Source of the DNA: Acidobacteriota bacterium
GTDB lineage: Bacteria; Acidobacteriota; JAAYUB01
Direction of reading: 5' to 3'
Assembly (NCBI GenBank): GCA_040768985.1
Contig: JAXGLX010000002.1
Span: 4,378,971 to 4,442,970 of the forward strand
Length of the DNA stretch: 64,000 nt
Below the pieces are notes generated by a model. It did no database searches. It saw only the letters and a list, made by a program, of their open reading frames with translations, and was not told the origin of the DNA. Every line of letters begins with the position of its first letter. Positions within the stretch are counted from its first letter, which is position 1. Shown here in pieces: positions 3,362 to 64,000 of the stretch. A program made the translations under genes and the position numbers.

Positions 3362-3541
3362 GTTTCTGGGAATTGTTGATAGTTGATGGTTGATTGTTGA
3401 TGGTGGTATAGGTTCGCAAGTTCACAGTTCGCCGGTTCACAGGTTCGCCGGTCTCCGTCTCCCGATTCACCGATTCACCCATTCACCGATTCACCGATTC
3501 ACCCATTCACCGATTCACCGATTCACCGATTCACCGTTTCC
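3362..3541. repeat. Mosaic intergenic repeat block, including an (SATTCACC)n octamer array at 3463..3536
   Basis: Direct reading shows TTGATGG-type heptamers, GGTTCRC units, GTCTCC units, then about 9 tandem octamers GATTCACC/CATTCACC. Confidence 0.9.
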
Positions 3542-4537
3542 TCAGTGCTGCCGCTTCAGGATGAAGTCGGTGATCTGCACCAGCGTCTTGCGGTGCGGCG
3601 ACGACGGGAAGGTCAGCAGCTCGGTGCGGGCCTGGTCGGCGTAGGCGTGGGCGCAGGCCATGGTCCGCTCCAGGCAGCCGGCGCGGCGCAACTCGCGCAG
3701 CAGGGCGTCGGGCTGGACGCTGGTGAAGCCCTGCTCGGCCACGACGGTTTCCACCATGCGGCGCGCGGCGGCGCCGTCCGACTGGAGCAGGTAGATCACC
3801 GGCAGGGTCAGCTTTCCCTCGCGCAGGTCGCCCATGACCGGCTTGCCCAGCTTCTGCTCGTCGGCGGTGTAGTCGAGGACGTCGTCCACGACCTGGAAGG
3901 CCAGGCCCAGGTTGAGGCCGATCCGGGTGAGCCGGTCGATGGTCGCGTCGTCGGCGCGGGCCGAGACGGCGGGCAGCGCGGTCGCCGCCGAGAACAGGTG
4001 CGCTGTCTTGCGGGCGGCGATGTCGAGGCTGGTTTCGGCGGTGAGGTCCAGCCGGCCCAGGACGTCGGCCTGGATCAGTTCCCCCTCCACCATTTTCCGG
4101 CTCACGTCCAGCAGCACGTCGAGGATCCGGAAGTTCTGCTGGGCCACCCCGACCTGGAACGCGGTCATGTACAGCCAGTCGCCCAGCAGCACCGACATGT
4201 GGTTGCCGTAGGCGGCGTTGACCGACGGGGAGCCCCGCCGGGTGTCGGCCTCGTCGATGATGTCGTCGTGGACCAGCGAGGCGGTGTGGATCAGCTCCAC
4301 CAGCGCCCCCAGCGGGTAGAGACGCTCGGGCTCGCAGCCGATCATGCGGCCGGCCAGGATCAGCAGCGCCGGCCGCAGCTTCTTGCCGCTCTGCCGGGCG
4401 ACATAGCGGCCGAGCTGGTCCACGATCCCCACGGAGGAATCGAGGTAGCCGTCGAAGCAGGTCTGGACCCGCTCGAGATCGGGCTGGATGCGCTTCAGGA
4501 TCAGGTTGGCGTTCACGGGCACATTCCTTTTCGTCAA
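3542..4537 (-). CDS. Polyprenyl (hexa/hepta/octaprenyl) diphosphate synthase
   Basis: Two DDxxD motifs (LVHDDIIDEAD and FQVVDDVLD) and overall IspB/HepT-like sequence. The start is uncertain: TTG at 4537, or in-frame GTGs 15-21 nt downstream. Confidence 0.9.
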   Translation of the reverse strand: MTKRNVPVNANLILKRIQPDLERVQTCFDGYLDSSVGIVDQLGRYVARQSGKKLRPALLILAGRMIGCEPERLYPLGALVELIHTASLVHDDIIDEADTRRGSPSVNAAYGNHMSVLLGDWLYMTAFQVGVAQQNFRILDVLLDVSRKMVEGELIQADVLGRLDLTAETSLDIAARKTAHLFSAATALPAVSARADDATIDRLTRIGLNLGLAFQVVDDVLDYTADEQKLGKPVMGDLREGKLTLPVIYLLQSDGAAARRMVETVVAEQGFTSVQPDALLRELRRAGCLERTMACAHAYADQARTELLTFPSSPHRKTLVQITDFILKRQH

Positions 4538-4576: not shown

Positions 4577-4800
4577 GAATCGGTGAATGGGTGAATCGGT
4601 GAATGGGTGAATCGGTGAATCGGTGGATCGGGAGACGGCAGACGAGACCCAAGCCCTGAACCGCGAGCCCCGAGCTCCGAACCCTGAGCCCCGAGCCCCG
4701 AACCCCTTAACGCTTGTGCCGATGTCCGAATTCCGATGTCCGATGTCCTAAGTCCGCGTCACGGGAACGAGCCTCTAGCCTCGAGTCTCGAGCTTCGATC
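4577..4800. repeat. Mosaic intergenic repeat block
   Basis: In order: (GGTGAATS)n, GGGAGAC units, CCCGAGC/CCCGAAC units, (CGATGTC)n, then GCCTCTAGCCTCGAG modules. Confidence 0.9.
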
Positions 4801-4801
4801 C

Positions 4802-5335
4802 TCACTTCTTCTCAAACACCTCGTGCGTCAGAACCGAATCGGCGTGGAACGGGTGGGTGAGCTGGAGGATGGGCGTGCGCCCCTCGGCGAAAGCGCCCAT
4901 GAGGTCCTGGATTCCCGCGTCGATCTCCCGCTGGAAGACGCGGTCCACGGAGCGCACGCCGTCGTTGATGAGCCACTCGTCCACGATGGGCACTTTGACC
5001 AGCAAGGCATAGCTCCGGACCCACTCCCGGATCAGCTCGTCGAGATGGTCCCGCCGGCCGAACTTGTGGCAGTAGTACGCGTAGTTGTCCAGCACGGAGC
5101 GGTCGCACACCACCATGTCGGCGCAGGCGCCCGCCTCCAGCTCCGCCACGATGTGCCGGTGGAGGATCCAGAGCTGGCCCTCCTCCGACGTCGCCTCATT
5201 GATGGGGAAGGGGCTGTGGCGAGCCATCTCCACGACCAGTTCCACCCGGTGGCCGCGCTTCTGCAATTCGGTGCAGAGCGAGAAGGCCAGCGCGGTCTTG
5301 CCGCAGCCGTGGGTGCCGATGATGGCAATTTTCAT
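4802..5335 (-). CDS. P-loop NTPase (AAA_28/NadR-like ATP-binding protein)
   Basis: Walker A motif IIGTHGCGKT at the N-terminus. 177 aa. GGAGG RBS upstream of the ATG. Confidence 0.7.
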   Translation of the reverse strand: MKIAIIGTHGCGKTALAFSLCTELQKRGHRVELVVEMARHSPFPINEATSEEGQLWILHRHIVAELEAGACADMVVCDRSVLDNYAYYCHKFGRRDHLDELIREWVRSYALLVKVPIVDEWLINDGVRSVDRVFQREIDAGIQDLMGAFAEGRTPILQLTHPFHADSVLTHEVFEKK

Positions 5336-5360
5336 GGGAGCCTCCGGGATTAACAGTCAA

Positions 5361-5486
5361 TTGGTGCATAGGTGAATCGGTGAATCGGTGAATGGGTGAA
5401 TCGGAAGACAGAATGAACGTACCGGCCAGCCGGTGAACCTGTAAACCTGCGAACCTGTGAACCTGTGAACCCTCAACTCACAACCC
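5361..5486. repeat. Mosaic intergenic repeat block
   Basis: (GGTGAATS)n at 5363..5404, then (GAACCTG)n, then CTCAAC units. Confidence 0.9.
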
Positions 5487-15344: not shown

Positions 15345-15629
15345 ATGGCAGGGGAAGGGTGAATCGGCGAATGGGTGAATCGGGAGACGGGAGACGAGAG
15401 AGGGGAGACGGCAGACGGGAGACGTGGGAGACGGGAGACGTCGGATGGTAAATGATTGACCGCAGACGAATCAACCATCCACGATCAACTATCAACGATC
15501 AACTATCAACGATCAACTATCAACGATCAACTATCAACGGTCAACTATCAACCATCAACCCTCCACGAATGGGAACGAACCCCGAACACCGACTCACCGA
15601 TTCACCCATTCACCCATTCACCCATTCAC
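15345..15629. repeat. Mosaic intergenic repeat block
   Basis: (GGTGAATS)n, (GGGAGAC)n, (ATCAACKATCAACT)n, then CATTCACC units. Confidence 0.9.
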
Positions 15630-16802
15630 CTACCCCAATACCCTAAAGAACATGCATTTGAGATAGTGCGTCTCCGGCATCGCCGGCAGCACCGGGTGGT
15701 CCAGCGCCTGGCACCCCTCGGCCACGAGCTGCACGTCGCGGCCCGCCTCGGCCGCGGCGGCGATCGCCTCGCGGAGCAGCATCTCCCGGGTGGTGAACGA
15801 CGAGCACGACGCCGCGGCCAGCACCCCGCCGGGTGTCACCCGGGCCAGCGCCAGGGCGATGTGGCGGCGGTAGATCGCCAGGGCGTCGTCGAGGAAGCGC
15901 TTCTTCTTGGCAAACGCCGGCGGGTCCAGGACGACGAAATCGAAGCGGCGCGTCTCGGTGGCGAGATACGTCTCCACGTTTTCCGTGACCGTCTCCAGCC
16001 GGTCCGCCCAGCCGTTGGCCGCGGCCGAGGCCCGCGCCAGCTCCAGCGCCGCCGCGTCGCCGTCGACGCACACGGCGCGGACGGCGCCGGCGGCGAGCAG
16101 GGTGTGGGCCCAGAGCCCGGAGTAGCTGAACAGGTCCAGGACGGACTCGCCTTCCCGGACCAGGTGGCCGAGCAGCCGCCGGTTCTCGCGGTGGTCCAGG
16201 AAGAGGCCGGTCTTGCGCCCGGCCCAACAGTCCACCACCATCCGGACGCCGTCGTGGTCCACGGTGACGGGCCCGTCCCAGCGGCCGGAAAGCAACCGCG
16301 TCTCCACGGCGAGCCCTTCGAGGCGGCGGAGCAGGTTGGTGTTGCGCAGGATCACCGTGTCCACCCCGAGGCGGCCCGACAGCTCTTCGGCCACGAGGTC
16401 CGTCCACCGCTCCATGCCGGCCACGCTCTGGGAGATCACGAGCACCGGGCCGTAGCGGTCCGCCACGAGCCCCGGCAGGCCGTCGCTCTCGCCGTACACC
16501 AGGCGCGCCACCGCCGCGCCGGGTCGGACCCGCTCCCGCCACGCCAGCGCCGCCGCCAGACGCCGCCGCACCAGCGCCGCGTCGGGCTCGCGGTCGGCCG
16601 AGTCCACGACCCGGACCGCGATGTGCGACAGCGGATTGGCGTAGCCCACGCCCAGGAACTCGCCGGCGCCCGACTCGAGGCGCACCGCCTCGCCGGGCGT
16701 GACGCCGGCGAGCGCCGCCGAGTCGAAGTCACCGCGCCAGGCCCAGCGATGGCCGCGGCGGATGCGGGTGTGGTAGTCCTTTTCCATACGGAGCGTGCGC
16801 AT
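15630..16802 (-). CDS. rlmI: Class I SAM-dependent rRNA (cytosine-C5) methyltransferase, RlmI-like (PUA + MTase)
   Basis: GLPGLVADRYG, KTGLFLDHRENR, LDLFSYSGLW and VVLDPPAFAKKK. ATG at 16802; an alternative TTG lies at 16808. Confidence 0.85.
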   Translation of the reverse strand: MRTLRMEKDYHTRIRRGHRWAWRGDFDSAALAGVTPGEAVRLESGAGEFLGVGYANPLSHIAVRVVDSADREPDAALVRRRLAAALAWRERVRPGAAVARLVYGESDGLPGLVADRYGPVLVISQSVAGMERWTDLVAEELSGRLGVDTVILRNTNLLRRLEGLAVETRLLSGRWDGPVTVDHDGVRMVVDCWAGRKTGLFLDHRENRRLLGHLVREGESVLDLFSYSGLWAHTLLAAGAVRAVCVDGDAAALELARASAAANGWADRLETVTENVETYLATETRRFDFVVLDPPAFAKKKRFLDDALAIYRRHIALALARVTPGGVLAAASCSSFTTREMLLREAIAAAAEAGRDVQLVAEGCQALDHPVLPAMPETHYLKCMFFRVLG

Positions 16803-17035
16803 GCCCAAAGTGTAGCATAGGAAAACTTTTCACCACAGAGGACACAGAGGGCACAGAGGACGCAGAGAGGGGATTCTGGCTTTTTAATTATTTAGCCGAG
16901 TCACGGATTGCTGGAATCCAAGCAATTTCATTTTTTTCACAAAATTACAAATTATTATCGGACGGAGCGGCCCTGCGTTCGTTTGATCAATTAGATGCTG
17001 ATGCATCAGAATCGTCCAAGTGGGGGAGACACGAA

Positions 17036-17434
17036 GTGAAGCGGATGGATGCTCTCAACATCATCACCGGTAAAGTGTTGACCGCCGCATTTCGGGTGCA
17101 TTCTGCCCTGGGGCCGGGCTTGCTCGAGAGCGCCTACCAGGCGTGTCTGGCTTACGAACTGCATCAGATGAGGTTGAAAGCGGATGTTCAGGTCGCTCTG
17201 CCCGTCACCTATGACCAGATTCGGCTGGAGGTCGGATACCGTTTGGATATCGTAGTGGAACAGCAGGTGATTCTGGAATTGAAAGCTGTCAACCAGTTGC
17301 TCCCGATCCATGAAGCCCAACTGCTGTCCTATTTAAAATTGAGCGGACTGCCAGTGGGGCTCCTGATCAACTTTCACGAGGTCCGCCTCAAGGATGGCAT
17401 TCGGCGCCTCATCAACACGAAGCCATCTCCCTGA
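17036..17434 (+). CDS. GxxExxY protein (PD-(D/E)XK nuclease fold), copy 1
   Basis: GLLESAY matches GxxExxY. D..E.K core in RLDIVVEQQVILELKAV. GTG start with a GGGGGAG RBS. The gene and its AT-rich upstream region have visibly lower GC than the neighbours. Confidence 0.85.
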   Translation: MKRMDALNIITGKVLTAAFRVHSALGPGLLESAYQACLAYELHQMRLKADVQVALPVTYDQIRLEVGYRLDIVVEQQVILELKAVNQLLPIHEAQLLSYLKLSGLPVGLLINFHEVRLKDGIRRLINTKPSP

Positions 17435-17553
17435 TCAGCCTAGAACACCCCCGGGAAATGGAAGACGTGGGTCGACGTCTCCAACACAGATGCCTTCTGC
17501 GTCCTCTGCGTACTCCGCGGTGACAATAATTGTGTCTTCGGTGCACGCGCTGC

Positions 17554-18909: not shown

Positions 18910-18987
18910 GGGGCCTCCTGGGGGGGGACTTCGATGCGCCAGTTTATCACAGGGAACAGTGAACAGTGAGGGGTGAATGGGTGAGTC

Positions 18988-19180
18988 GGGAGACGGGAGA
19001 CGGTTTTCGATCCGGGTTCAGAACATTAAAAAAAACTCTGTGTTCTCTGCGTACTCCGTGGTGAAGGCCGGCTGACCGATGTCCGATTTCCGATGTCCGA
19101 AGTCCGCATGGCGGGAACGAGCCTCTAGCCTCGAGCCTCTAGCCTCGATTACGATCACGATTACGAATCACGAGCACGAG
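18988..19180 (+). repeat. About 195-bp composite repeat element, copy A
   Basis: Aligns by eye at about 95% identity to the reverse complement of 23043..23232. Module order: GGGAGAC units, GTTCAGAACATTAAAAAAA, CTCTGTG units, GGTGAAGGCCGGCTGACC, CGATGTC units, GCCTCTAGCCTCGA, ACGATT/ACGAGC units. Confidence 0.9.
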
Positions 19181-19301: not shown

Positions 19302-19790
19302 ATGGCTGGAAAACAGGAAGTGCACGAGGGGATCGTTCAGCTCGAGAAGGGTCTCAAGCTGATTCACAAGGGCAAGTACCAGGAGGCCGTGCCCGTGTTC
19401 AAGGCGCTGCAAGGCCGCAGCGACCTGCCGCCCGGGCTCAGCCAGCGGGCCGGGGTGTACCTCCGGGCCTGCCACCGCCATACGGCGCCGCCGCCGAAAG
19501 CGTCCACCGAGTTCGGCGACCTGCTGGACCGGATCGCCTGCCAACTGAACCTGGGCGAGACCGCCGCCGCGGCCGAACTGCTCAAGAAGGCCCGCAAGCA
19601 GGATCCGAAGTCCGCCCAGGTGGCCTACCTGGAGGCGGTGCGGTTCACGCTGGAGCGGAACATCGACAAGGCGATAGTGGCGCTGGCCGAGGCGCTGAAC
19701 CTCGATCCCGCCATCCGGTTTCAGGCACGGAGCGACATGGACCTGGAACCGCTCCACCACCTGGACGAGTTCCGCCGCCTCATCGGCTGA
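19302..19790 (+). CDS. TPR-like repeat protein, function unknown
   Basis: ATG at 19302 preceded by GAGGAGGA. 162 aa, helical and TPR-like (KGKYQEAVPVFKAL..., NIDKAIVALAEALNLDP). Confidence 0.55.
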   Translation: MAGKQEVHEGIVQLEKGLKLIHKGKYQEAVPVFKALQGRSDLPPGLSQRAGVYLRACHRHTAPPPKASTEFGDLLDRIACQLNLGETAAAAELLKKARKQDPKSAQVAYLEAVRFTLERNIDKAIVALAEALNLDPAIRFQARSDMDLEPLHHLDEFRRLIG

Positions 19791-19792
19791 CC

Positions 19793-19884
19793 GTAGTTCA
19801 GGCGTCTCGCCTGACGTAGCTCCGGCATCCTGCCTGACGTAGTTCAGGCGTCCCGCCTGACGTGGCTCAGGCATCTTGCCTGAG
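19793..19884 (+). repeat. REP-like array: 4 tandem 23-bp hairpin units
   Basis: Units GTAGTTCAGGCGTCYCGCCTGAC and GTGGCTCAGGCATCTTGCCTGAG. Each contains the palindrome CAGGCR-N4-YGCCTG. Confidence 0.9.
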
Positions 19885-21404: not shown

Positions 21405-22430
21405 ACAGTGGGGATGTTCACAGGTTCCAGGTTTGCGGGTTGATCGTTGATTGTTGATGGTTGATGGATCGTCAGTCGCCACTCCGTCCCTCGGCTTTCC
21501 ATTGACAAAAAGAAGCGCTTGGCGCCTTCGCGTCTTGGCGCGCCATCTCTTCCTCCGCGCCCTCTGCGCCTCCGCGGTGAATGATCGGGGCTCGAGACTC
21601 AAGGCTCGTTCCCAGTGATCAACGATCAACAATCAACCATCAACCAACCATCAACCGTCTCGGACATCGGACATCGGACATCGGACATCGGCACAAGCGG
21701 TTCGGGTCTCGCGGTTCGGGGTTCGGCTCCTCCGTCTCCCGTCTCCCCGATTCACCGATTCCCCGATTCACCGATTCCCCGATTCACCGACTCACCGATT
21801 CACCGACCCACCGATTCCCCTCTCAACCATCAACCGTCCCAGACTTCACCACAGAGAGGCACAGAGGACACAGAGTTTTTTTAATGTTCTGAACCCTAAT
21901 CGAAAACCGTCTCCCGTCTCTCCTCTCCCGTCTCCCGATTCCCCGATTCGCCCTCCTCGCACTCCAAATAGCCATTAAAATATAAGCAATCACCAGTAAC
22001 CAATAAACTCGCTCCTTCTTCCCTCGCCCTTCCATTGACAATAAATGCCTTCTTGGCGCCTTCGCGTCTTGGCGCGCCAACTCTTCCTCCGCGCCCTCTG
22101 CGCCTCCGCGGTGAATAATCGAAACTCGCGGCTCGTTCCCGTAATGCGGACTTCGGACATCGGAAATCGGACATCGGCACAAGCGGTTCGGGGCTCGTTC
22201 CCAACCTCAACCTTCAACCGTATCGGACATCACCGCAGAGGCGCAGAGGACGCGGAGGCTTTTTATGTTCTGATCCCTGATCGTAAGTCGTCTCCCGTCT
22301 CCCGTCTCCCGATTCACCGACTCACCGATTCACCCATTCACCGACTCACCGATTCATCGACTCACCGATTCACCGATTCACTAACCCTGCGAACCATCAA
22401 CCATCACCTGTTGGCGAACCGGGATCTTCC
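21405..22430. repeat. About 1-kb mosaic intergenic repeat region
   Basis: Concatenated modules: GTGAACA, TGATGGT, CGGACAT, ATTCACC/ATTCCCC, CACAGAGG and CGTCTCC. Also two copies of a ~100-bp block, CCATTGACAA..CTTGGCGCCTTCGCGTCTTGGCGCGCCA, at about 21480 and about 22010. Confidence 0.9.
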
Positions 22431-22501
22431 CCATGCCGCTTGTGATACTATTGAATCAAACGAACGGCCCGTGGCGACGGCCATCCTGCAGGAGGGATGC
22501 C

Positions 22502-22999
22502 ATGGCAACCGATTTTCAAGGAAAAGTGATCCGAGCGCTGAACGATGTGGACCAGCAGAACATGGACCTGCTGGACCAGGTGATCGATGCGGCGAACGAG
22601 GTCGCCTCCGGCGATACGGCCAACGTGACCATCGACGAACCCCAGCCGGAGGGGCCCGGCGATGTGTCCCCCGGTGAGATGCAGCGCTGGGACACCATCG
22701 TGGGCGGCGGCGATGTGCCTCCCGGTGAAACGCAGCGCTGGGACACCATCGTGGACGGCGGCGAAGTGCCCCCCGGTGAAATGCAGCGCCGGGACACCAT
22801 CGTGGGCGGCGGCCAGGGCGCCTCGACGGCCGGCACCGGTGGCGTGGCCCTGCTCGAGTTCGCCAAGGACGCCATCCAGACAGCGGCCTCGAACATCTCG
22901 GGCGCCGGCACAGAAGAGATCCAGGCGCGGAAAATCGCCGAGCGCAAGATGGAATCGGCCGACGAAGCGGCCGACGACGACGACGACGAGAAGAAGTGA
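22502..22999 (+). CDS. Acidic orphan protein with 3 x 17-aa tandem repeats
   Basis: ATG preceded by GGAGGG. 51-bp repeats at 22658..22810 encode GDVSPGEMQRWDTIVGG, GDVPPGETQRWDTIVDG and GEVPPGEMQRRDTIVGG. C-terminus is DEAADDDDDEKK. I recognise no family. Confidence 0.5.
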   Translation: MATDFQGKVIRALNDVDQQNMDLLDQVIDAANEVASGDTANVTIDEPQPEGPGDVSPGEMQRWDTIVGGGDVPPGETQRWDTIVDGGEVPPGEMQRRDTIVGGGQGASTAGTGGVALLEFAKDAIQTAASNISGAGTEEIQARKIAERKMESADEAADDDDDEKK

Positions 23000-23700
23000 G
23001 GAGTTGGGAGATAGGAGATAGGAGATAGGAGTGAACCGTTCGCGTGCTCGTGATTCGTAATCGTGATCGTAATCGAGGCTCGAGACTCGAGGCTGGAGGC
23101 TCGTTCCCGCCATGCGGACTTCGGACATCGGAAATCGGACATCGGTCAGCCGGCCTTCACCACGGAGTACGCAGAGGACACAGAGTTTTTTTAATGTTCT
23201 GAACCCTAATCGAAAACCGTCTCCCGTCTCCCGTCTTACGTCTCCCGTCTTACGTCTCCCGTCTCCCGATTCCCCGATGCTCCCTCTTCAATGACAAATG
23301 ACAAATGAAATATGACCAATGACAAATGGATCGAAGATGGTGCCAGGCTCTGTCACAAATCGGACATCGGACAGCAGGATCCGGGTCTCGCGGTTCGGGG
23401 TTCGGCTCTCGTCTCCCGTCTCCCGATTCCCCGATTCACCCTCCTCGCACTCCAAATAGCCAACATAATATCAGCAATCATCAACAACCAATACACTCGC
23501 CGCTTCTTCCCTCGCCCTTCCATTGACAATAAATGCCTTCTTGGCGTCTTCGCGTCTTGGCGCGCCATCTCTTCCTCCGCGCCTCGGAGGATTCACCGCA
23601 GAGGCGCAGAGGACGCGGAGAAGACTCTGATTGTGTTCGAACAACAATTGGATCTGCGCTGTGTCCTCAGTGTCCTCTGTGGTGAGTCTTTAGGGTGGAT
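23000..23700. repeat. Mosaic intergenic repeat region, including inverted copy B (23043..23232) of the ~195-bp element
   Basis: The reverse complement of 23043..23232 matches 18988..19180. Further modules: ATGACAA units, CGGACAT, ATTCACC, the CCATTGACAATAAATGCCTTCTTGGCG block, and CGCAGAGG. Confidence 0.9.
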
Positions 23701-23720
23701 GATTCCGTCCGAGATTTCCC

Positions 23721-23749
23721 TTGACATCGCCTCACCCCGCCGGTAAAAT
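23721..23749 (+). promoter_or_regulatory. Near-consensus sigma-70 promoter (TTGACA-17 nt-TAAAAT) upstream of rplM-rpsI
   Basis: TTGACA at 23721..23726, an exact 17-nt spacer, and TAAAAT at 23744..23749. It lies about 360 nt upstream of the rplM ATG. Confidence 0.55.
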
Positions 23750-23934
23750 CTCGCTCCCGTTGAATGGGTTACCTGGATTGCCGTTCGACGCATGTCCTTT
23801 CGGGCTCTTTGAGGCGCGCGACCCGCGCGCGAAACCACGGCGGACCCGCTGCCGGTCCGCCGGCCCAAATCCAGGGAATCGGGACTGACGGCTTTTCCTG
23901 AATCGTACCGTTTGTTCTCGAATCTTCCGTTCGG

Positions 23935-24048
23935 GTGGCTCAGGTCTCCCGCCTGAGGTAGTTCAGGCGTCTCGCCTGACGTGGCTCAGGCATCTTGCCT
24001 GAGACGAACCGAACCGGCGAAACGGGTAGTTCAGGCGTCCCGCCTGAG
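23935..24048 (+). repeat. REP-like array: 4 units of the 23-bp hairpin repeat (3 tandem, a 22-nt spacer, then 1)
   Basis: GTGGCTCAGGTCTCCCGCCTGAG, GTAGTTCAGGCGTCTCGCCTGAC, GTGGCTCAGGCATCTTGCCTGAG ... GTAGTTCAGGCGTCCCGCCTGAG. Confidence 0.9.
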
Positions 24049-24110
24049 AACCGCCGTCGCGGCGCGTGACCCGCGTCCTGAATAAGGAACAGTTACTTGC
24101 GGAGTATAAA

Positions 24111-24950: not shown

Positions 24951-25085
24951 CGTGGCTCAGGCATCTTGCCTGTAGCTCAGGCCTCCGGCCTGCTGTAGCT
25001 CAGGCATCTTGCCTGATGTGGCTCAGGCCTCCGGCCTGATGTGGTTCAGGCGTCCCGCCTGATGTGACTCAGGCGTCCCGCCTGA
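24951..25085 (+). repeat. REP-like array: 6 tandem hairpin units of about 22-23 bp
   Basis: Units are of the type GTGGCTCAGGCATCTTGCCTG, TAGCTCAGGCCTCCGGCCTGCT ... GTGACTCAGGCGTCCCGCCTGAC. The array starts immediately after the rpsI stop. Confidence 0.9.
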
Positions 25086-25210
25086 CGAGGACATGAAACG
25101 GCGAGCCGAAGATCCGGTGAGCCGGCAGTGGAACGAATCAGGCGCCGCGCCTGAGTTTGGATACGCAAATCACCCGGGCGTCGGGCCCGGGAATAGATCA
25201 GGAGGCACCG

Positions 25211-26271: not shown

Positions 26272-26632
26272 GCACGCCAAGACGCCAAGACGCAAAGCGG
26301 ATTTATTGTTTTTGTCTCGGTCCGCTGCGTCTTGGCGTAGGAAGCGGATCCGGACGAGTCGAAACGGGAATTGGCCCACGAAGGCGCCAAGGCGCAAAGC
26401 GGATTTTGGGTTTTTATCTCAAGCCGGTGCGTCTTGGCGTTAGAAGCGGATCCGGACGAGTCGAAACGGGAATTGGCCCACGAAGGCGCCAAGGCGCAAA
26501 GCGGATCTTGGGTTTTTGTCTCAAAGCGTTGCGCCTGGGCGTAGAAGGGTGAATCCGGACGAACCGAAGCGATATCGTCCGTCCGAACCGAACGGGATTC
26601 AAAACAAAAAAAGTGTTCTTTGCGCCTTCGCG
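26272..26632 (+). repeat. About 3 tandem copies of a 102-bp hairpin-containing repeat, plus a tail, upstream of GxxExxY copy 2
   Basis: The period was measured from recurring CACGAAGGCGCCAAGGCGCAAAGCGG at 26377 and 26479. Each unit contains the inverted repeat CGCCAAGACGCAAAGCGGA...TCCGCTGCGTCTTGGCG around a T-rich loop. Confidence 0.9.
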
Positions 26633-26787
26633 TCGTTGTGAGCGTATTTAAGGCGCCCGGTTACGAGAGTTCTTTGATATCGATTTGAATAATTTTCGGG
26701 CCGGGATGAAAAAACCGGTGGAAAACGTCGGACACCCGCCGGGCCGATCCGTTGGATAGGGTATATCCCATCGAACGGAGGCGAAAC

Positions 26788-27189
26788 ATGACCGAAGCCC
26801 GGGTGATGACCACAAACGATGTGGCCCGCGAGGTGGTGGACGCCGCCCTGCAGGTGCACCGCGCCCTGGGGCCGGGCCTGTTGGAACGCGTCTACGAGGC
26901 GGTCCTGGCCTACGAGCTGGGCCGCCGCGGCTTGGACGTCCGGCGCCAGATGCCCGTGCCCGTGGTGTACGACGGCCGCACCTTCGACGTGGGCCACCGC
27001 CTGGACCTGGTGGTGGCTGACCGCGTGGTGGTGGAGATCAAGTCGGTGGAGACGCTCCTCCCCGTCCACTTCAAGCAGGTGCTCACCTACCTGAAGCTCA
27101 CGGGGCTGCACCTGGGGCTGCTGATCAATTTCAACGAGGCGCTGCTCCGCGACGGCCTCCACCGTCTGGTCATGGGACTGCCCGAGTAA
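26788..27189 (+). CDS. GxxExxY protein (PD-(D/E)XK nuclease fold), copy 2
   Basis: GLLERVY matches GxxExxY. D..E.K core in RLDLVVADRVVVEIKSV. ATG at 26788 after GGAGG. Clearly paralogous to 17036..17434. Confidence 0.85.
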   Translation: MTEARVMTTNDVAREVVDAALQVHRALGPGLLERVYEAVLAYELGRRGLDVRRQMPVPVVYDGRTFDVGHRLDLVVADRVVVEIKSVETLLPVHFKQVLTYLKLTGLHLGLLINFNEALLRDGLHRLVMGLPE

Positions 27190-27192
27190 ATC

Positions 27193-27585
27193 GGCTCACG
27201 AAGACGCCGGTTCAGGCTCACCAAGGCGCAAAGACGCAAAGCAGATTTATTGTTTTTGTCTTAGCCTGTTGAGTCTTGGCGTTGAAAGTGGATCCGGAAG
27301 AGCCGAACCGGGAAGTGGCTCACGAAGCCGCCAAGACGCCAAGCGGATTTTGGGTTTTTGTCTCGGGCCGTCGCGTCTCGGCGTTGAAAGTGGATCCGGA
27401 AGAGCCGAACCGGGAAGTGGCTCACGAAGCCGCCAAGACGCCAAGCGGATTTTGGGTTTTTGTCTCGGGCCGTCGCGTCTCGGCGTTGGAGAACAAACCC
27501 GGTTGATCCGGAACGTCCTCGTCCGCCCGACCCGAACGGAACTCAAAAAACAAAAAGTATTCTTTGCGTCTTGGCGTCTTGGCGA
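27193..27585 (+). repeat. About 3 tandem copies of the same 102-bp hairpin repeat, plus a tail, downstream of GxxExxY copy 2
   Basis: CACGAAGCCGCCAAGACGCCAAGCGG recurs at 27321 and 27423, giving a 102-bp period. These two units appear identical: the ORF track shows a perfect 34-aa duplication in ORF 27276..27506. Confidence 0.9.
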
Positions 27586-28694: not shown

Positions 28695-28728
28695 CGCCGG
28701 TCCGTCCCCACGGGCCGGCGTTTTTTTT
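28695..28728 (+). terminator. Rho-independent terminator after tsf
   Basis: CGCCGGTCCG-TCCCCA-CGGGCCGGCG gives a 10-bp GC-rich stem with a 6-nt loop, followed by T8. Confidence 0.85.
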
Positions 28729-28911
28729 CACCACAGAGACACAGAGGACACAGAGGAATTCATCTGTCATTGGGCATCGGTCATTTTTCATTTAATGGTT
28801 TTGGGACCCGGGACCTGGACTTTGTGACCTGGATGCTGAGAGTTGGGACTTGGGGCCTGAGAGTTTGGACTCGGGAGTTGGGATCCGGATGCTGAGACTT
28901 GATGCCGAAAC

Positions 28912-29270
28912 CCCAGCACCCAGGTCCCAGGTCCCAGTTCCCAGCACCCAGGTCCCAGTCCCCAGCACCCAGTCCCCAGTCCCCAGCACCCAGTCCCCAG
29001 TCCCCAGTCCCCAGTCCCCAGCACCCAGTTCCCAGCACCCAGTCCCCAGCACCCAGTCCCCAGCACCCAGGTCCCAGCACCCAGTCCCCGGTTCCCAGTT
29101 CCCAGGTCCCAGCACCCAGGTCCCAGCACCCAGTTCCCAGGTCCCAGCACCCAGTCCCCGGTTCCCAGTTCCCAGGTCCCAGCACCCAGGTCCCAGCACC
29201 CAGGTCCCAGGTCCCAGCACCCAGGTCCCAGTTCCCAGGTCCCAGTTCCCAGGTCCCAGTTCCCACTTCC
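28912..29270. repeat. About 51 tandem heptamers CCCAGNN (minus strand NNCTGGG)
   Basis: Direct reading shows CCCAGCA/CCCAGGT/CCCAGTT/CCCAGTC units without interruption. This produces open frames on both strands. Confidence 0.95.
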
Positions 29271-29442
29271 CATCATCAAAAACAGCCTCTTCTCCAAATA
29301 GCCAATAAAATATAAGCAATCACCAATAACCAATAGTTGGAAATGCCCGATGTCAAATGCCCGATGAAAAATGTCTAATGAATTCCTCTGTGCCCTCCGT
29401 GCCCTCTGTGGTGAAATCTCCCCATCCCAACCCTCGGATTCC

Positions 29443-29470: not shown

Positions 29471-29850
29471 GATCTGTTCGATTTGTGCCTCCGCGCGCCG
29501 CCGCCTGGAGTACAATTAGAACGACCGTGTATGCGGACGACGGCACAACCCACCAACCCCCTTTTCTTGAGCCGCCGTGCTCTTGACGGCGGAGCTGCAT
29601 CCTCACCACAAAGGCACAAAGAACACAAAGGCTGTTTATGTTCTGAACCCGAATCGTGAACCGTCTCCCCGCCCATTCACCCATTCACCAACCCCGCTAG
29701 TCCGAAATGCCCAATGAAAAATGACCAATGCCATATGAAAAATGATCAGTTAATTCCTCTGTGTCCTCTGTGCCTTTGTGGTGAATCCGCCTGCATTCTT
29801 TTCTATCAACTATCAACCATCAACCATCAACCTGCCCCCGAGGTAACTAA

Positions 29851-31674
29851 ATGCCCTCCACTTTCCAAGACCTGAAAACCAAAATTGACGCCAAGACCGC
29901 AACGGTCGGCATCATCGGCCTCGGCTACGTGGGCCTCCCCCTGGCCATGGCCTTTGTCGAGAAGGGCGTCCGGGTGATCGGCTTCGACGTCGACGCCGAC
30001 AAGCCCGCGCGCCTGGCGCGCGGCGAAAGCTACATCCGCCACCTCGGCGCCGACCGTGTCGCCGCCATGGCCCGCTCGGGGCTCTTCGCCGCCACCACCG
30101 ACTTTGCGCGTCTCGCCGAGCCCGACGCCATCCTCATCTGCGTGCCCACGCCCCTCACCCCCCAGCGCGAGCCCGACATGACCTACGTCACCGCGTCCGC
30201 CCGGCAGGTGCGCGCGTCTTTGCGTCCCGGCCAGCTCGTGGTGCTCGAGAGCACCACCTACCCCGGCACCACCGACGAGCTGGTGCGGGGGATCCTGGAC
30301 GAAGCGAACCTCGAGTGCGGGCAGGACTACTTTCTGGCCTTTTCCCCCGAGCGCGAGGACCCGGGGCGCGAGGACTACACCACCACCACCACGCCGAAAG
30401 TCGTGGGGGGCGTCGACGCGGCGTCGGGGGATCTGGCCCAGGCGCTCTACGACCTCGTGATCGCCCGCACGGTGCGCGTCTCCTCGGCGCGCGCCGCCGA
30501 GTCGGCCAAGCTCACCGAGAACATCTTCCGGGCGGTGAACATCGCCCTGGTGAACGAGCTCAAGATGGTCTACGACCGGATGGGCATCGACGTCTGGGAG
30601 GTGCTCGACGCCGCCGAGACCAAGCCGTTCGGCTTCATGCGCTTCAACCCCGGCCCCGGCTGGGGCGGCCATTGTCTGCGAGGCGGCGAATGGGTTCGAG
30701 TCCGGGGCCTGGGATTGAACGGGCCGGTGCGGTTCGAGGATCTCTTCGACGCGTTGAAGAATGATCAGCCCGTCGCCGTCACCCCCAAGGGAATGTACCT
30801 GCATCCCCGAGGACTCGAGGCCCTGGCGCTCGATCCGCGGTCCGGCGATGTCGACTACCTGCCGGTGGAGGTCCTGTACCGCGGATTTTACGAAGGATCG
30901 GGCGTCTGCCTCACCACCGACGACAACCGCCGCCTGTTCCTGACCGACGGTCACCCCATGCTGGTCAAGAATGCAGCAGGCTTTGAGATCGTCTCAGCCC
31001 GCGATCTTCAAGCCGGTCAGCAACTGCCTGTCTTGAGCGAGGATGAAAACCCAGAATTGTCCTTGGCGTCTTTGCGCGCCATAGAAACCCTCGCCATGAA
31101 CGAACCGGTCTATTCTCTGGAAGTTGAGCGGGCGCATACGTTCACTACGACGGGGGGCATTGTCGTCCACAATTGTATCCCGCTGGACCCGTTCTATCTG
31201 TCCTGGAAGGCGCGGGAGCACGGCGAGTCGCCGAAATTCATCGAGCTGGCCGGCGACGTGAACCTGCGCATGCCCCACTACGTGGTGGGCAAGCTCCAGG
31301 CGGCGCTCAACGACCGCGGCCGCGCGGTGAAGGGGAGCCGGGTGCTGGTGCTCGGCATCGCCTACAAGCGCGACATCGACGACCCGCGCGAGAGCCCCGC
31401 CTTCGAGATCATCGACCTGCTGCTGCAACTCGGCGCCCACGTCTCGTATCATGACCCCCACATCCCCGCGGCGCCGCGGATGCGCACCTGGCCGAAGCTC
31501 CCGCCCATGCAGAGCACGCCGCTGACCCCCGCGACCCTGGCCGGGTGCGACGCCGTCCTCATCGTCACCGACCACCGCAACGTGGATTACTCCCTCGTGG
31601 CCAAACACGCCCCGCTCGTCATCGACACCCGCGGCCTCTACCGGGCGCCGCTCCCCAACGTCGTCAAGGCATGA
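29851..31674 (+). CDS. Nucleotide-sugar 6-dehydrogenase (UDP-N-acetyl-D-mannosamine/glucosamine dehydrogenase family) interrupted by a mini-intein
   Basis: N-terminal TVGIIGLGYVGLPLAMAF Rossmann fold. The active-site motif GPGWGGH-C-IPLDP is split by 167 aa. The C-terminal domain (VLVLGIAYKRDIDDPRESP) is intact. Confidence 0.9.
   Translation: MPSTFQDLKTKIDAKTATVGIIGLGYVGLPLAMAFVEKGVRVIGFDVDADKPARLARGESYIRHLGADRVAAMARSGLFAATTDFARLAEPDAILICVPTPLTPQREPDMTYVTASARQVRASLRPGQLVVLESTTYPGTTDELVRGILDEANLECGQDYFLAFSPEREDPGREDYTTTTTPKVVGGVDAASGDLAQALYDLVIARTVRVSSARAAESAKLTENIFRAVNIALVNELKMVYDRMGIDVWEVLDAAETKPFGFMRFNPGPGWGGHCLRGGEWVRVRGLGLNGPVRFEDLFDALKNDQPVAVTPKGMYLHPRGLEALALDPRSGDVDYLPVEVLYRGFYEGSGVCLTTDDNRRLFLTDGHPMLVKNAAGFEIVSARDLQAGQQLPVLSEDENPELSLASLRAIETLAMNEPVYSLEVERAHTFTTTGGIVVHNCIPLDPFYLSWKAREHGESPKFIELAGDVNLRMPHYVVGKLQAALNDRGRAVKGSRVLVLGIAYKRDIDDPRESPAFEIIDLLLQLGAHVSYHDPHIPAAPRMRTWPKLPPMQSTPLTPATLAGCDAVLIVTDHRNVDYSLVAKHAPLVIDTRGLYRAPLPNVVKA
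30673..31173 (+). mobile_element. Mini-intein (167 aa, no homing-endonuclease domain)
   Basis: Starts at Cys275 (CLRGGEW). Block B is LFLTDGHPML, block F is VYSLEVERAHTF, and block G is GGIVVHN ending at Asn441, followed by the +1 Cys442 (CIPLDP). Confidence 0.9.
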
Positions 31675-57256: not shown

Positions 57257-57705
57257 GGCACGCCAAGACGCGAAGGCGCAAGGCAATATTTATGGTCAAT
57301 GGAAGGGCGAGATGGATTTGGGCAAAATGGATGAGTTGGTGAGCGGCTGATGGGGAGATATTGGCGCGCAAAGACGCGAAGGCGCAAAGCAGGATTTTGG
57401 GTCAATGGAAGGGCGAGGGAAAAAGAGGCGGTGTTTATTGGTTGTTGGTGATTGCTTATATGTTATTGGCTATTTGGAAGCGAGCTGGGTTTGGGTGAAT
57501 GAGTGAGTCGGTGAATCGGTGAATCGGTGAGTCGGTGAAAGGGTGTGTCGGTGAATCGGTGAATTGGTGAATGGGTGAATCGGTGAATTGAGACACGAGA
57601 GACGGGAGACGAATCAGTCATCAACCATCAACTCTCAACTCTCAACTCTCAACCGTTGCGAACCTGCAAACCTGCGAACCTGTGAACCTGAGAACCTGAG
57701 AACCA
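57257..57705. repeat. Mosaic intergenic repeat block
   Basis: CGCCAAGACGCGAAGGCGCAA..GGTCAATGGAAGGGCGAG x2, the TTTATTGGTTGTTGGTGATTGCTTATATGTTATTGGCTATTTGG block, (GGTGAATS)n at 57493..57588, GGGAGAC, TCAACYC and GAACCTG units. Confidence 0.9.
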
Positions 57706-60015: not shown

Positions 60016-60345
60016 ACGTTTGAAGGTTTGAAAGTTGAAAGGTTGGAATGTTGGGATTGGGGAACGTTATAACCTTATCAAGAAAACGTTTGAAGGTTTG
60101 AAAGTTGAAAGGTTGGAAGGTTGGGATTGGGGAACGTTATAACCTTATCAAGAAAACGTTTGAAGGTTTGAAAGTTGAAAGGTTGGAATGTTGGGATTGG
60201 GGAACGTTATAACCTTATCAAGAAAACGTTTGAAGGTTTGAAAGTTGAAAGGTTGGAATGTTGGGATTGGGGAACGTTATAACCTTATCAAGAAAACGTT
60301 TGAAGGTTTGAAAGTTGAAAGGTTGGAATGTTGGGATTGGGGAAC
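60016..60345 (+). repeat. 70-bp tandem repeat, about 4.7 copies
   Basis: ACGTTTGAAGGTTTGAAAGTTGAAAGGTTGGAATGTTGGGATTGGGGAACGTTATAACCTTATCAAGAAA. ACGTT recurs at 60016, 60086, 60156, 60226 and 60296. I saw one substitution, in copy 2. Confidence 0.95.
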
Positions 60346-60590
60346 GTTCAAACCTTCAAACCTTTAAACATTCAAACAGTTCCGAACACGATTACGAATT
60401 ACGATCACGATTACGATCACGATGACGATTACGAGCACGAACATTCGGGATGGGAACGAGCCTCTAGCCTCGAGCCTCTAGCCTCGATTACGAGTACGAT
60501 TACGAATTACGATCACGATTACGAGCACGAAATCCGATTTCCGAAGTCCGATGTCCGAATTCCGATGTCCGAATCCCATGGGGAGGGAAC
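60346..60590. repeat. Mosaic intergenic repeat block
   Basis: AAACCTTCAAACC units, ACGATT/ACGAGC hexamers, GCCTCTAGCCTCGAGCCTCTAGCCTCG, and CGATGTCCGAAT units. Confidence 0.9.
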
Positions 60591-60595
60591 CGACG

Positions 60596-62969: not shown

Positions 62970-63545
62970 TTAATGTCTGACAATGGGGTTAAATCCCTCG
63001 CCTTCAGGCGAAAACTTGAGTTAGAGTACGATGTATGGAGTATTATCGAACGTCGGCTCATACCCGCTACGATGTGAAGTATCATTTTGTATGGATCACC
63101 AAATACCGCAAAGCAATCTTGCGGGGGCCGGTGGCGGAACGGCTGCGGGATTTGGTTCGGGAAGTGTGCCAGAGCAACGACATCGAGATCATGCAGGGGC
63201 ACGTGGCCAAGGACCATGTGCACTTGTTTGTGTCGGCGCCGCCCCACCTGTCACCGAGCAAGATCATGCAATACATCAAAGGGAAGACCTCGCGCAAGCT
63301 GATGATGGAATACCAGCACATCCAGAAGGCGTTCTGGGGACGGCATATCTGGGGGCGGGGCTACTTTGTCGCTAGCTCGGGCAACGTCACGGACGAGGTG
63401 ATCCAGGAGTACATCCGGCTGCAACAAGAGGGCGAGCCGCGGGGCGGAGGGGACAGTTTCAGGGTCGAGGAAGGCTGACATCGGCTTCCAGCCGGTGTCA
63501 GCCGGAATCAATGTCTTTCAAGCCCTCGCCTTCAGGCGAGGGTGG
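62970..63545 (+). mobile_element. IS200-type insertion sequence (tnpA only) with subterminal hairpins
   Basis: Left hairpin TCGCC-TTCA-GGCGA at 62998..63011. Right hairpin CCCTCGCC-TTCA-GGCGAGGG at 63523..63542. Both are preceded by AATGTCT and are in the same orientation. GC is lower than the surroundings. The element boundaries are approximate. Confidence 0.75.
63035..63478 (+). CDS. tnpA: IS200/IS605-family Y1 (HUH) transposase TnpA
   Basis: YHFVWITKYRK, the HUH motif DHVHLFVSAPP, and the C-terminal GYFVASSGNVTDEVIQEYIRLQ with the catalytic Tyr region. Confidence 0.92.
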   Translation: MEYYRTSAHTRYDVKYHFVWITKYRKAILRGPVAERLRDLVREVCQSNDIEIMQGHVAKDHVHLFVSAPPHLSPSKIMQYIKGKTSRKLMMEYQHIQKAFWGRHIWGRGYFVASSGNVTDEVIQEYIRLQQEGEPRGGGDSFRVEEG

Positions 63546-63549
63546 TTGA

Positions 63550-64000
63550 CTGGAAAGGTGAGCGGGGGCGGGGCAGACCGGGCACGCAAAGGCGCCATGA
63601 ATAGCTCGCCAAGGCGCAGAGACGCAAAGAAGACTTTTTTGGGTCAATGGAAAGAAGCGGTCGGCGGGTGCCGGCTGAAATTTTTTGGGTGAATGGGTGA
63701 ATGGGTGAATCGGGGAGTCGGTGAATGGGTGAATCGGGGAGTCGGTGAATGGGTGAATAGGTGAATAGGTGAATCGGGATACGGGATACGGGATACGGGA
63801 GACGGGAGAGGGTTCTTGGTTCGGGGACAGAACATAAAAAGCCTCTGTGTCCTCTGCGTACTCCGTGGTGAAGGCCGGCTGTCCGAGGGTCGGGGACGGT
63901 TGATGGGTTGATAGTTGATGGTTGATGGAGGAATCGGTAGAATGGGCGGAAAATCAAAGTTCGTAGGATTAGGAAGACGTTTGAAGGTTTGAAAGTTGAA
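63550..64000. repeat. Mosaic intergenic repeat block running to the window edge; includes promoter-like copy C (63915..63943)
   Basis: CGCAAAGAAGACTTTTTTGGGTCAATGGAAAGAAGCGGTCGGCGGGTGCCGGC (also at 59790..59845), (GGTGAATS)n at 63688..63776, GGGATAC/GGGAGAC units, CTCTGTG units, TTGATGG units, then GACGTTTGAAGGTTTGAAAGTTGAA. Confidence 0.9.

Follow-up and report, generated by a model that had tools for sequence, protein, structure and literature searches.

Ordered arrays of short tandem repeats fill the intergenic DNA of a high-GC Acidobacteriota locus

Introduction

Short tandem repeats with units of 5-11 nt have been catalogued for 35 years in scattered bacteria, and neither their origin nor their role has found an accepted explanation. 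A 64,000-nt stretch of an Acidobacteriota genome (GenBank assembly GCA_040768985.1, contig JAXGLX010000002.1, positions 4,378,971 to 4,442,970), referred to here as the window, poses the question anew: what kind of DNA fills its intergenic gaps, and how is that DNA generated and kept? An initial reading made from the nucleotide letters alone (the sequence-only reading) had described nearly every gap outside a repeat-free island as a concatenation of a few 6-9-nt tandem modules in either orientation.

Intergenic tandem repeats with units of 5-11 nt have been described in scattered taxa; they have no accepted function, and slippage is the origin usually proposed (PMC4692102, PMC4679880, PMC6749651, PMC2700814). 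The explanation that we favour for the window, with moderate confidence, is a lineage-specific bacterial satellite DNA. It would consist of arrays, mostly of 7- and 8-nt units, of the type known as short tandemly repeated repetitive (STRR) sequences or long simple sequence repeats (SSRs), together with a few hairpins resembling repetitive extragenic palindromic (REP) sequences, and would grow by slippage and recombination under weak constraint.

Results

The window is composed of a high-GC part (1-31.7 kb and 55.4-64 kb, with a GC content at third codon positions of about 0.9) and a 24-kb low-GC island of polysaccharide genes. Tandem Repeats Finder returned 209 rows for the window, overlapping rows with different periods representing one array, and almost all of them fall between the genes of the high-GC part. 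This part measures 40,280 bp, of which 9,604 bases (23.8%) are intergenic. Arrays of period 6-9 occupy 34% of these intergenic bases; in first-order Markov resamples of the sequence, which set the chance level, the mean was 0.01% and the maximum 0.2%, and the coding DNA of the whole window contains 0.9%. Dispersed matches of at least 50 bp cover 54% of intergenic bases versus 0.7% of coding bases, and tandem and dispersed repeats together account for 68% of the high-GC intergenic bases. The best non-overlapping intergenic arrays are mainly of period 7 (n=30) and 8 (n=25), with few of period 9 (n=7) or 6 (n=2), and higher-order periods of 14, 16, 24, 35 and 70 nt are superimposed on some of them. 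The filling of nearly every high-GC gap from a small vocabulary, as originally described, is thus borne out at a level far beyond chance. The (GGTGAATS)n arrays were recovered at 3462-3540, 4577-4631, 5359-5404, 15357-15380, 57494-57588 and 63686-63774, as was every other module that the sequence-only reading had listed.

The two largest gaps had been thought to contain modules and nothing else. Arrays by themselves make up just 44% of the gap at 21405-22430 and 25% of that at 23000-24060; when dispersed blocks are included the repeat share rises to 95% and 62%. The unique remainder of the second gap (23682-23933) comprises the rplM promoter (23721-23749, 11/12 consensus) and leader. In the low-GC island, gaps of 405, 242 and 192 bp hold no arrays at all, in agreement with the absence first noticed between about 31.75 and 55.4 kb; the island is also poor in intergenic DNA.

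An assembly artefact is scarcely credible as the source of these structures. The copy number of a 354-bp (CCCAGTT)n array does differ among assemblies, and this array may be collapsed in some of them. The mosaic was nevertheless recovered in at least eight independent assemblies (JGI, ENA) as well as in a sister species, and most arrays are shorter than a sequencing read.

Clustering of the repeat units yielded about 11 recurrent families, which are used in either orientation and are designated here by letters: A, GGTGAATC; B, GGGAGAC; C, CGGACAT; D, TCAACCA; E, ACGATT or ACGAGC; F, GAACCTT; G, GCCTCGA; H, CACAGAGGA; I, the hairpin CGCCAAGA; J, GTGAACA; K, AATGACA; and P, CCCAGTT. The window has nine arrays of A, eight of B and seven of C, and the units are also found on other contigs of the lineage. 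Rather than being shuffled, as had been supposed, the modules follow a non-random order: a fixed syntax joins them, by way of conserved linkers, into a composite element. An A array is followed by a B array in the same orientation ten times, compared with 0.56 on average and at most 4 in 2000 permutations, and the order E-G-C is likewise recurrent. On several contigs the full composite reads ACGATT hexamers, GCCTCGA heptamers, the linker GAGGCTCGTTCCC, CGGACAT, CACAGAGGA with a T-run, GGGAGAC and GGTGAATC. Alignment of nine composite-core sequences from four contigs (the window, L001, L129 and L154; alignment A2) revealed a common core around this invariant linker, then variable arrays, then B and A. 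Together with a core profile, the alignment identified seven distinct loci with a full or nearly full core, and the profile matches were confined to contigs of the high-GC lineage. The linker alone occurs seven times in the window versus 0.13 expected. Most modules are the simple tandem runs that had been described; others are palindromic hairpins, namely the I family, CGCCAAGACGC and the 23-nt units at 19783-19883, 23934-24003 and 24955-25085. H arrays, too, frequently occur in inverted pairs.

The exact L13 protein of the window is encoded on 18 metagenome contigs, eight of which were aligned to the window at 95-99% identity; JGI 3300027536, 3300027592 and 3300010350 are among the samples from which the lineage comes. 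Within arrays these strains differ by indels of 7, 8, 9, 23 and about 28 nt. In strain L001 a C-B-A-D block is present in an additional 220-bp copy, the junction of which is a GAGA microhomology. The same strain has, inserted between B and A arrays, a toxin-antitoxin cassette of the ribbon-helix-helix (RHH)/ParE type that brings a promoter and an E-G-C-B-A composite of its own. The active generating mechanism that had been suggested finds support in an ordinary sense, in the whole-unit indels and the segmental duplication among strains and in higher-order array periods of 14, 16, 24 and 70 nt.

We propose that replication slippage would expand and contract the arrays. Homologous exchange between arrays, whether by unequal or ectopic recombination or by gene conversion, could copy composite blocks into new gaps and homogenise them, and recombination between arrays could insert or delete the DNA that lies between them. 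Weakly constrained satellite DNA of this kind would persist mainly through spread and tolerance; as side effects it would inflate intergenic gaps and provide portable homology for gene-cassette insertion and rearrangement. The location of accessory cassettes and rearrangements at repeats supports this proposal.

A sister species, L236, whose rplM and rpsI third codon positions are 93% identical to those of the window, carries the composite upstream of rplM, at the site orthologous to that of the window. The elements thus predate the split of the two species and have kept their place. Their content has not been kept to the same degree. Aligned columns are 72-77% identical and are interrupted by module-level indels, a D array stands in place of the C array, and L236 has one 23-nt hairpin unit versus four in the window. 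It also lacks a 132-nt sub-block bounded by B (GGGAGAC) arrays, a difference that would fit recombination between them, and a 107-nt hairpin of inverted H-type repeats (window 23591-23700), the loop of which is found only once in the window. The promoter and leader are 83% identical. In these alignments, the composite diverges faster than the promoter and leader and faster than neighbouring third codon positions.

Farther from the window, the nearest species-representative genomes are uncultured Acidobacteriota metagenome-assembled genomes (MAGs) with 79% and 64% identity in ribosomal protein S2; a partial MAG protein with 95% identity likewise carries the label Acidobacteriota. At 73-79% S2 identity, relatives retain the order L13-S9-S2-EF-Ts-TPR-NTP-transferase, with gaps of 19-150 bp within the conserved block from rplM to the NTP-transferase gene. 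Their loci are about 9-16% intergenic, as counted from called genes, versus 24% here, and carry 0-5 bp of array per kb versus 49-80 bp. In the window the same block is rearranged and spread by 0.2-1.5 kb of repeats and small accessory genes. Since near relatives are free of the repeats, the expansion can be dated.

Several observations weigh against a neutral satellite. The linker GAGGCTCGTTCCC is identical in all copies and contigs. Of 15 independent copies of the composite core, 12 follow a stop codon at a distance of 0-85 nt in the sense orientation (one-sided binomial probability about 0.018). In nine of the ten cases in which a GGTGAATC array abuts a gene, its G-rich strand is directed away from that gene. 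Neutral spread alone does not predict such placement. These samples are small, and effects of replication and transcription are inseparable within 64 kb, where modules keep a common polarity for tens of kb at a time. Within the species, intergenic sequence has diverged about half as much as neighbouring third codon positions, a comparison confounded by recombination mosaicism. Because this mosaicism makes the lower intergenic rate among strains uninterpretable, and because the sister-species comparison indicates fast divergence, purifying selection as read from the strains was dropped. Finally, the events that we attribute to slippage and recombination are all read from comparisons of assemblies.

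Much of this evidence would be expected if the composite acted in cis, as a functional element at the 3' ends of genes or between operons, such as a factor-dependent terminator or insulator, a stabiliser of mRNA 3' ends, or a platform for RNA- or DNA-binding proteins or ribosomes. Beyond the sense placement of the core and the constancy of its linker, arrays often start at the stop codon itself, sense arrays present regularly spaced Shine-Dalgarno-like motifs (GGUGA, GGAG, AGGAG), the composite is kept at the orthologous site in the sister species, and canonical intrinsic terminators are not enriched (11 found versus 9.7 expected). We nonetheless consider a cis element unlikely. Three core copies are divergent or antisense, and polarity is reversed throughout 55-64 kb, where the genes also lie on the + strand. 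Unit numbers vary freely, the composite changes faster than either the promoter and leader or third codon positions, and relatives with the same genes have no composite. The core of one copy (23000-23215) folds no better than shuffled sequence (z = +0.74), and Rfam 15 gave no match in the window at gathering score and merely chance-level miRNA matches at E values up to 1. Long hairpins in the first large gap do exceed shuffles (z = -3.8 and -2.3), but inverted CACAGAGGA-type arrays give rise to them and they are no constant feature, so that a structured RNA was rejected. C-rich Rho-utilisation tracts were also rejected: the first 200 nt past stop codons are mostly G-rich (C/G below 1) and hence not rut-like. 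The protein-binding or non-B-DNA function that the sequence-only reading had entertained gains no support from the divergence and folding results. A related proposal, in which the composite is a functional, oriented boundary module at gene 3' ends (perhaps a factor-dependent terminator or insulator of a new kind, or an array-built landing pad for ribosomes or proteins) and genes travel with it as cassettes by array recombination, independently of integrons, strikes us as distinctly doubtful.

Alternatively, the composite blocks and hairpins might be non-autonomous mobile elements, either foldback elements or relatives of miniature inverted-repeat and palindrome-associated transposable elements (MITEs and PATEs), with the arrays as internal parts. 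They would be moved in trans by an IS200 TnpA or by candidate GxxExxY PD-(D/E)XK proteins. Blocks are present in either orientation, are up to 95.5% identical and keep their internal order, which agrees with this model, as do a multi-copy IS200, a 0.9-kb foldback and the 107-nt hairpin missing from the sister species. The GxxExxY gene at 17036-17434, in particular, is bracketed by inverted CACAGAGGA arrays (16836-16866 and 17491-17515) and belongs to a segment that is nearly identical among strains despite differences of 12-13% at third positions of neighbouring genes. We still regard mobility in trans as rather unlikely. The ends expected of a MITE or PATE were not found in the composite, whose homology stops inside arrays without terminal inverted repeats or target duplications; a 198-bp block shared in inverse orientation by 18981-19178 and 23043-23239 (95.5% identity), for example, loses its homology within arrays and has no target-site duplication. 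The structural differences seen among strains are a tandem duplication and unit indels rather than clean insertions. The GxxExxY genes are missing from the other array-bearing contigs examined and from control loci, and this nuclease was therefore dismissed as a general partner of the arrays.

The transposase of the window is an ordinary one. The Y1 protein encoded at 63035-63478 scores 160.6 bits against the IS200 model (cut-off 55) and 35.2 bits against the REP-associated model (cut-off 80), and the IS200 hairpin occurs at the two ends of the insertion sequence (IS) only. A link between REP sequences and a REP-associated tyrosine transposase (RAYT) was accordingly rejected: the sole Y1 transposase is an IS200 TnpA with sharp IS ends and a hairpin that is not dispersed. 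The 6-9-nt arrays, being direct and non-palindromic, also lack the palindrome of about 20-40 nt that characterises REP sequences; palindromy of this type is limited to the 23-nt TCAGGC-N5-GCCTGA units and the CGCCAAGRCGC hairpins of 102-nt units. As for CRISPR, the units are contiguous, without spacers, and no cas-like domains were detected among the proteins scanned. The earlier judgement that the repeats were neither REP sequences or bacterial interspersed mosaic elements (BIMEs), nor MITEs, nor CRISPR therefore holds for CRISPR, for classical MITEs and for the absence of a REP-associated transposase; part of the vocabulary is nevertheless hairpin DNA of REP/BIME type.

A last possibility is a sequence-specific process common across bacteria, suggested by arrays of GGTGAATC-type octamers in many unrelated metagenomic contigs. 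(GARTCGGK)3 is present in at least 119 contigs with GC contents of 0.34-0.74, two low-GC contigs also have CGGACAT-like arrays, and several units resemble repeats of Chloroflexus, Mesorhizobium, Xanthomonas and cyanobacteria (PMC6749651, PMC4692102). A one-mismatch likeness to published units is, however, expected by chance. Viral contigs gave four target matches, compared with four and five for two composition-matched permuted units, so octamer arrays arise at a low background rate and their spread is uninformative about a shared mechanism. The composite core, in addition, is limited to the high-GC lineage. A universal GGTGAATC octamer was discarded on these grounds, and we hold a shared process to be very improbable.

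Discussion

The satellite interpretation places the window near several known repeat systems. The closest are the STRR sequences of heterocystous cyanobacteria and the wider class of long SSRs with units of 5-11 nt (Mrazek et al. 2007, as summarised in PMC4679880). As far as that summary goes, these repeats are head-to-tail and intergenic, heptamers are commonest, units recur at many dispersed loci, and the repeats occur in scattered taxa with large genomes, with slippage proposed as their origin. The arrays of the window share the period, the confinement to non-coding DNA, the dispersed recurrence and the unit-number polymorphism between strains. They differ in their host, which is Acidobacteriota-like with about 70% GC, in having about 11 unit families instead of a few, in octamers that are as common as heptamers, in the fixed order of arrays with conserved linkers, and in the one third of intergenic DNA that is array. 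The cyanobacterial units that are STRR sequences in the strict sense are CCCCAGT, TTGGTCA and CAACAGT. None of these is matched in the window, where the nearest units (CCCAGTT, AATGACA and GTGAACA) are at least one base off in every rotation.

Other systems resemble the window in single respects. Like the arrays described here, the GGGNATC repeats of Xanthomonas and Nostoc are intergenic, have a G-rich and a C-rich strand, lie nearer the upstream than the downstream open reading frame (ORF), and vary in length among relatives at conserved genomic positions; they are, however, built from a single unit with G-quadruplex potential, whereas the window has many units, most of them without G-runs, arranged in composites (PMC4692102). 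The TAACTGA heptamers of marine Beggiatoaceae, cyanobacteria and Bacteroidetes are also intergenic direct repeats positioned by gene boundaries, and a role in translation has been proposed for them, not tested (PMC4679880). They consist of 2-6 copies of a single unit a few nt upstream of start codons, in contrast to the long arrays of many units that mostly follow stop codons here (PMC4679880). The multicopy sites of Geobacter metallireducens comprise several classes of three to five tandem 7-9-nt units, often paired on opposite strands, with an IS at fixed distance and a unit, TWGTTGAY, that recalls GGTTGAT here; those arrays are short and are read as regulator binding sites rather than gap-filling mosaics (PMC2700814). 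Chloroflexus GATAGRA and Mesorhizobium AGGGGAGT are also among the units reported in this literature (PMC4692102, PMC4679880, PMC6749651, PMC2700814); the former is identical to the unit of the AGGAGAT array at 22999-23031.

With enterobacterial BIMEs and REP sequences the window shares intergenic mosaics of a few motifs in defined combinations and tandem hairpin units within operons (here of 23 and 102 nt), although its arrays are mostly non-palindromic and direct and no REP-associated tyrosine transposase was found. With eukaryotic satellite DNA it shares hierarchical amplification (8-nt subunits within 70-nt units that are 98% identical), copy numbers that turn over quickly, and positions that are conserved between species although the content diverges; unlike eukaryotic satellites, the arrays measure tens to hundreds of bp and recur between every few genes. 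The repeats are thus of a kind already described, contrary to the first impression that they were unrecognised. A literature search found no paper containing the exact units and no report for Acidobacteria. The window stands out for how many unit families it has, for their fixed order and conserved linkers, for the intergenic fraction involved and for the clear contrast with near relatives.

The lineage offers an extreme and tractable case, in which about a dozen ordered families, turnover at the level of units and blocks among strains and sister species, and cassettes at repeats can be followed together. It could reveal how DNA of the satellite type comes to invade a compact bacterial genome, doubling the non-coding fraction, and whether that DNA ends up serving as a substrate for gene insertion or as a signal at gene ends. 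The repeats also break short-read assemblies and create spurious ORFs, and so are relevant to binning and annotation of this group.

Individual loci and neighbouring genes

The first large gap (21405..22501) reads, on the + strand, J, D-, I-, H-, G-, D+, C+, B-, A- (x9), D+, H+, B-, A-, I-, H-, C+, D+, B- and A- (x9), and is a diverged duplication of about 530 bp (21476-21838 versus 22009-22405, 68% identity). Its two long A arrays lie on the - strand. That of GGTGAATC/GGGGAATC at 21747..21817 has a 16-nt higher-order period and differs by one 8-nt unit in strain L001; that of GGTGAATC/GGTGAGTC at 22309..22381 has nine units, and the B array position just upstream holds the RHH/ParE cassette in strain L001. 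The cassette occupies 7521-8032 of L001, and its promoter, TTGTGT-N17-TATACT, overlaps the palindromic operator-like sequence CAATGTAAACATTG. A 48-nt block of the I family, CCATTGACAATAAATGCC...GGCGCGCCA, at 22032..22079 (+) has nine related copies in the window. The recurrence of this block had been recognised at the outset: the sequence is exact at 22032, has one mismatch at 23520, is related at 21518, and appears as its complement at 57261, 57367 and 62933. A role for the block as a promoter was rejected, as TTGACA is present, a -10 element is absent and a promoter scan does not flag it.

The repeat part of the second large gap (23000..23700) opens with (AGGAGAT)n right after a stop codon and continues with the composite E-G-linker-C-H-T-run-B-A, a K array, a second C-B-A, a 48-nt block and the H-unit hairpin at 23591-23700. 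The composite core at 23055..23145 (+; ACGATT-type hexamers, GCCTCGA heptamers, linker GAGGCTCGTTCCC and CGGACAT heptamers; 98 bits with nhmmer, alignment A2) begins 56 nt past the stop codon of the gene 22502-22999. A second full core, supported by profile match and block alignment, lies at 19076..19166 (-), and another copy at 4726..4802 (-) begins at the stop codon of the - strand gene 4802-5335 and is followed by B and A arrays (4577-4640). A partial core at 60445..60505 (-) is antisense to both flanking genes and so is an exception to the 3'-of-gene pattern.

Further A arrays include one of 9.9 GGTGAATC units at 3462..3540 (-), which abuts the stop codon of the gene 3542-4537; one of 12 GGTGAATC units at 57494..57588 (+), followed by GGGAGAC, TCAACYC and TGCGAACC arrays; and one of 11 GGTGAATS units with a 24-nt higher-order period that, with (CGGGATA/CGGGAGA)n, occupies 63686..63807 (+) and belongs to a locus continuing in L226 with a full composite. 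In the convergent gap at 15357..15630, which reads A+, B+ (x8), D+ (x13) and A-, the A arrays lie at both gene ends and point inward. The (CCCAGTT)n array at 28919..29272 (+) has about 50 units and a 35-nt higher-order period, and lies within a foldback whose arms are CACAGAGGA and AATGACA arrays (28727-28793 and 29719-29785). At 60016..60356 (+), a 70-nt higher-order repeat of 4.9 copies, 98% identical, is built from 8-nt GTTGGAAG-type subunits.

The tandem 23-nt hairpin units, TCAGGC-N5-GCCTGA, at 24955..25085 (+) separate rpsI from rpsB, and every strain locus that covers this site has one unit more than the window; the family recurs at 19783-19883 and 23934-24003. In the same gap, L236 (1630-1820) and a closer relative, L237 (860-1050), carry successive GGCGARCC-type octamers in place of the hairpin array of the window (24951-25156). 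A single hairpin unit is shared; a different unit has been expanded at the same site. Hairpins CGCCAAGRCGC...GCGTCTTGGCG form each 102-nt unit of a 2.8-copy array at 26279..26562 (+). With a second set at 27215-27488, this array brackets, as direct repeats of about 400 bp, the GxxExxY/PDDEXK_3 gene 26752-27189 (+), which splits rpsB and tsf, adjacent genes in relatives. This gene and its counterpart at 17036-17434 (+) are 50% identical to each other and behave like inserted cassettes.

The IS200/IS605-family element lies outside the repeat vocabulary. It spans 62971..63551 (+; 581 bp, with a 147-aa TnpA at 63035-63478), is inserted in a CGCCAAGA-type I block, and has identical ends (left TTAATGTCTGACAATGG, right GGTGGTTGACT) at ten loci with different flanks; contigs tend to break at it, as expected of a multi-copy element.

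Between 19884 and 31674 the third-position GC skew of the + strand is negative in all eight genes and is mostly positive on either side, and module polarity flips along with it. The segment could be inverted, or the skew could be a codon-usage effect of highly expressed genes.

Among the neighbouring genes, that at 22502-22999 (+), between the two largest gaps, encodes a 165-aa acidic protein with no family match that is conserved in all strains and has three 17-residue repeats (51-nt period, 22657-22813) and a poly-Asp tail. In the relatives L208 and L211/L212, ORFs of 163 and 180 aa without a Pfam match occur nearby. A 791-aa ORF at 60551-62926 (+; GC 0.78), without a match in Pfam or NCBIfam, contains many GC-rich repeats of 3-18 nt, and its start abuts CGGACAT-type arrays. 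The island at 31700-55400 has a GC content of 43-55% and carries glycosyltransferase and polysaccharide genes on one strand with tiny gaps and no repeats; it looks recently acquired, and its start is also present in strain L001. Just before it, a UDP-glucose dehydrogenase gene with an intein (29851-31674) encodes 607 aa, including a mini-intein, in the window and most strains. In strain L003 (5956-8712) an insertion of about 930 bp near the position of window 31041-31096 gives a protein of 918 aa with a faint Pfam match to the LAGLIDADG homing-endonuclease domain.

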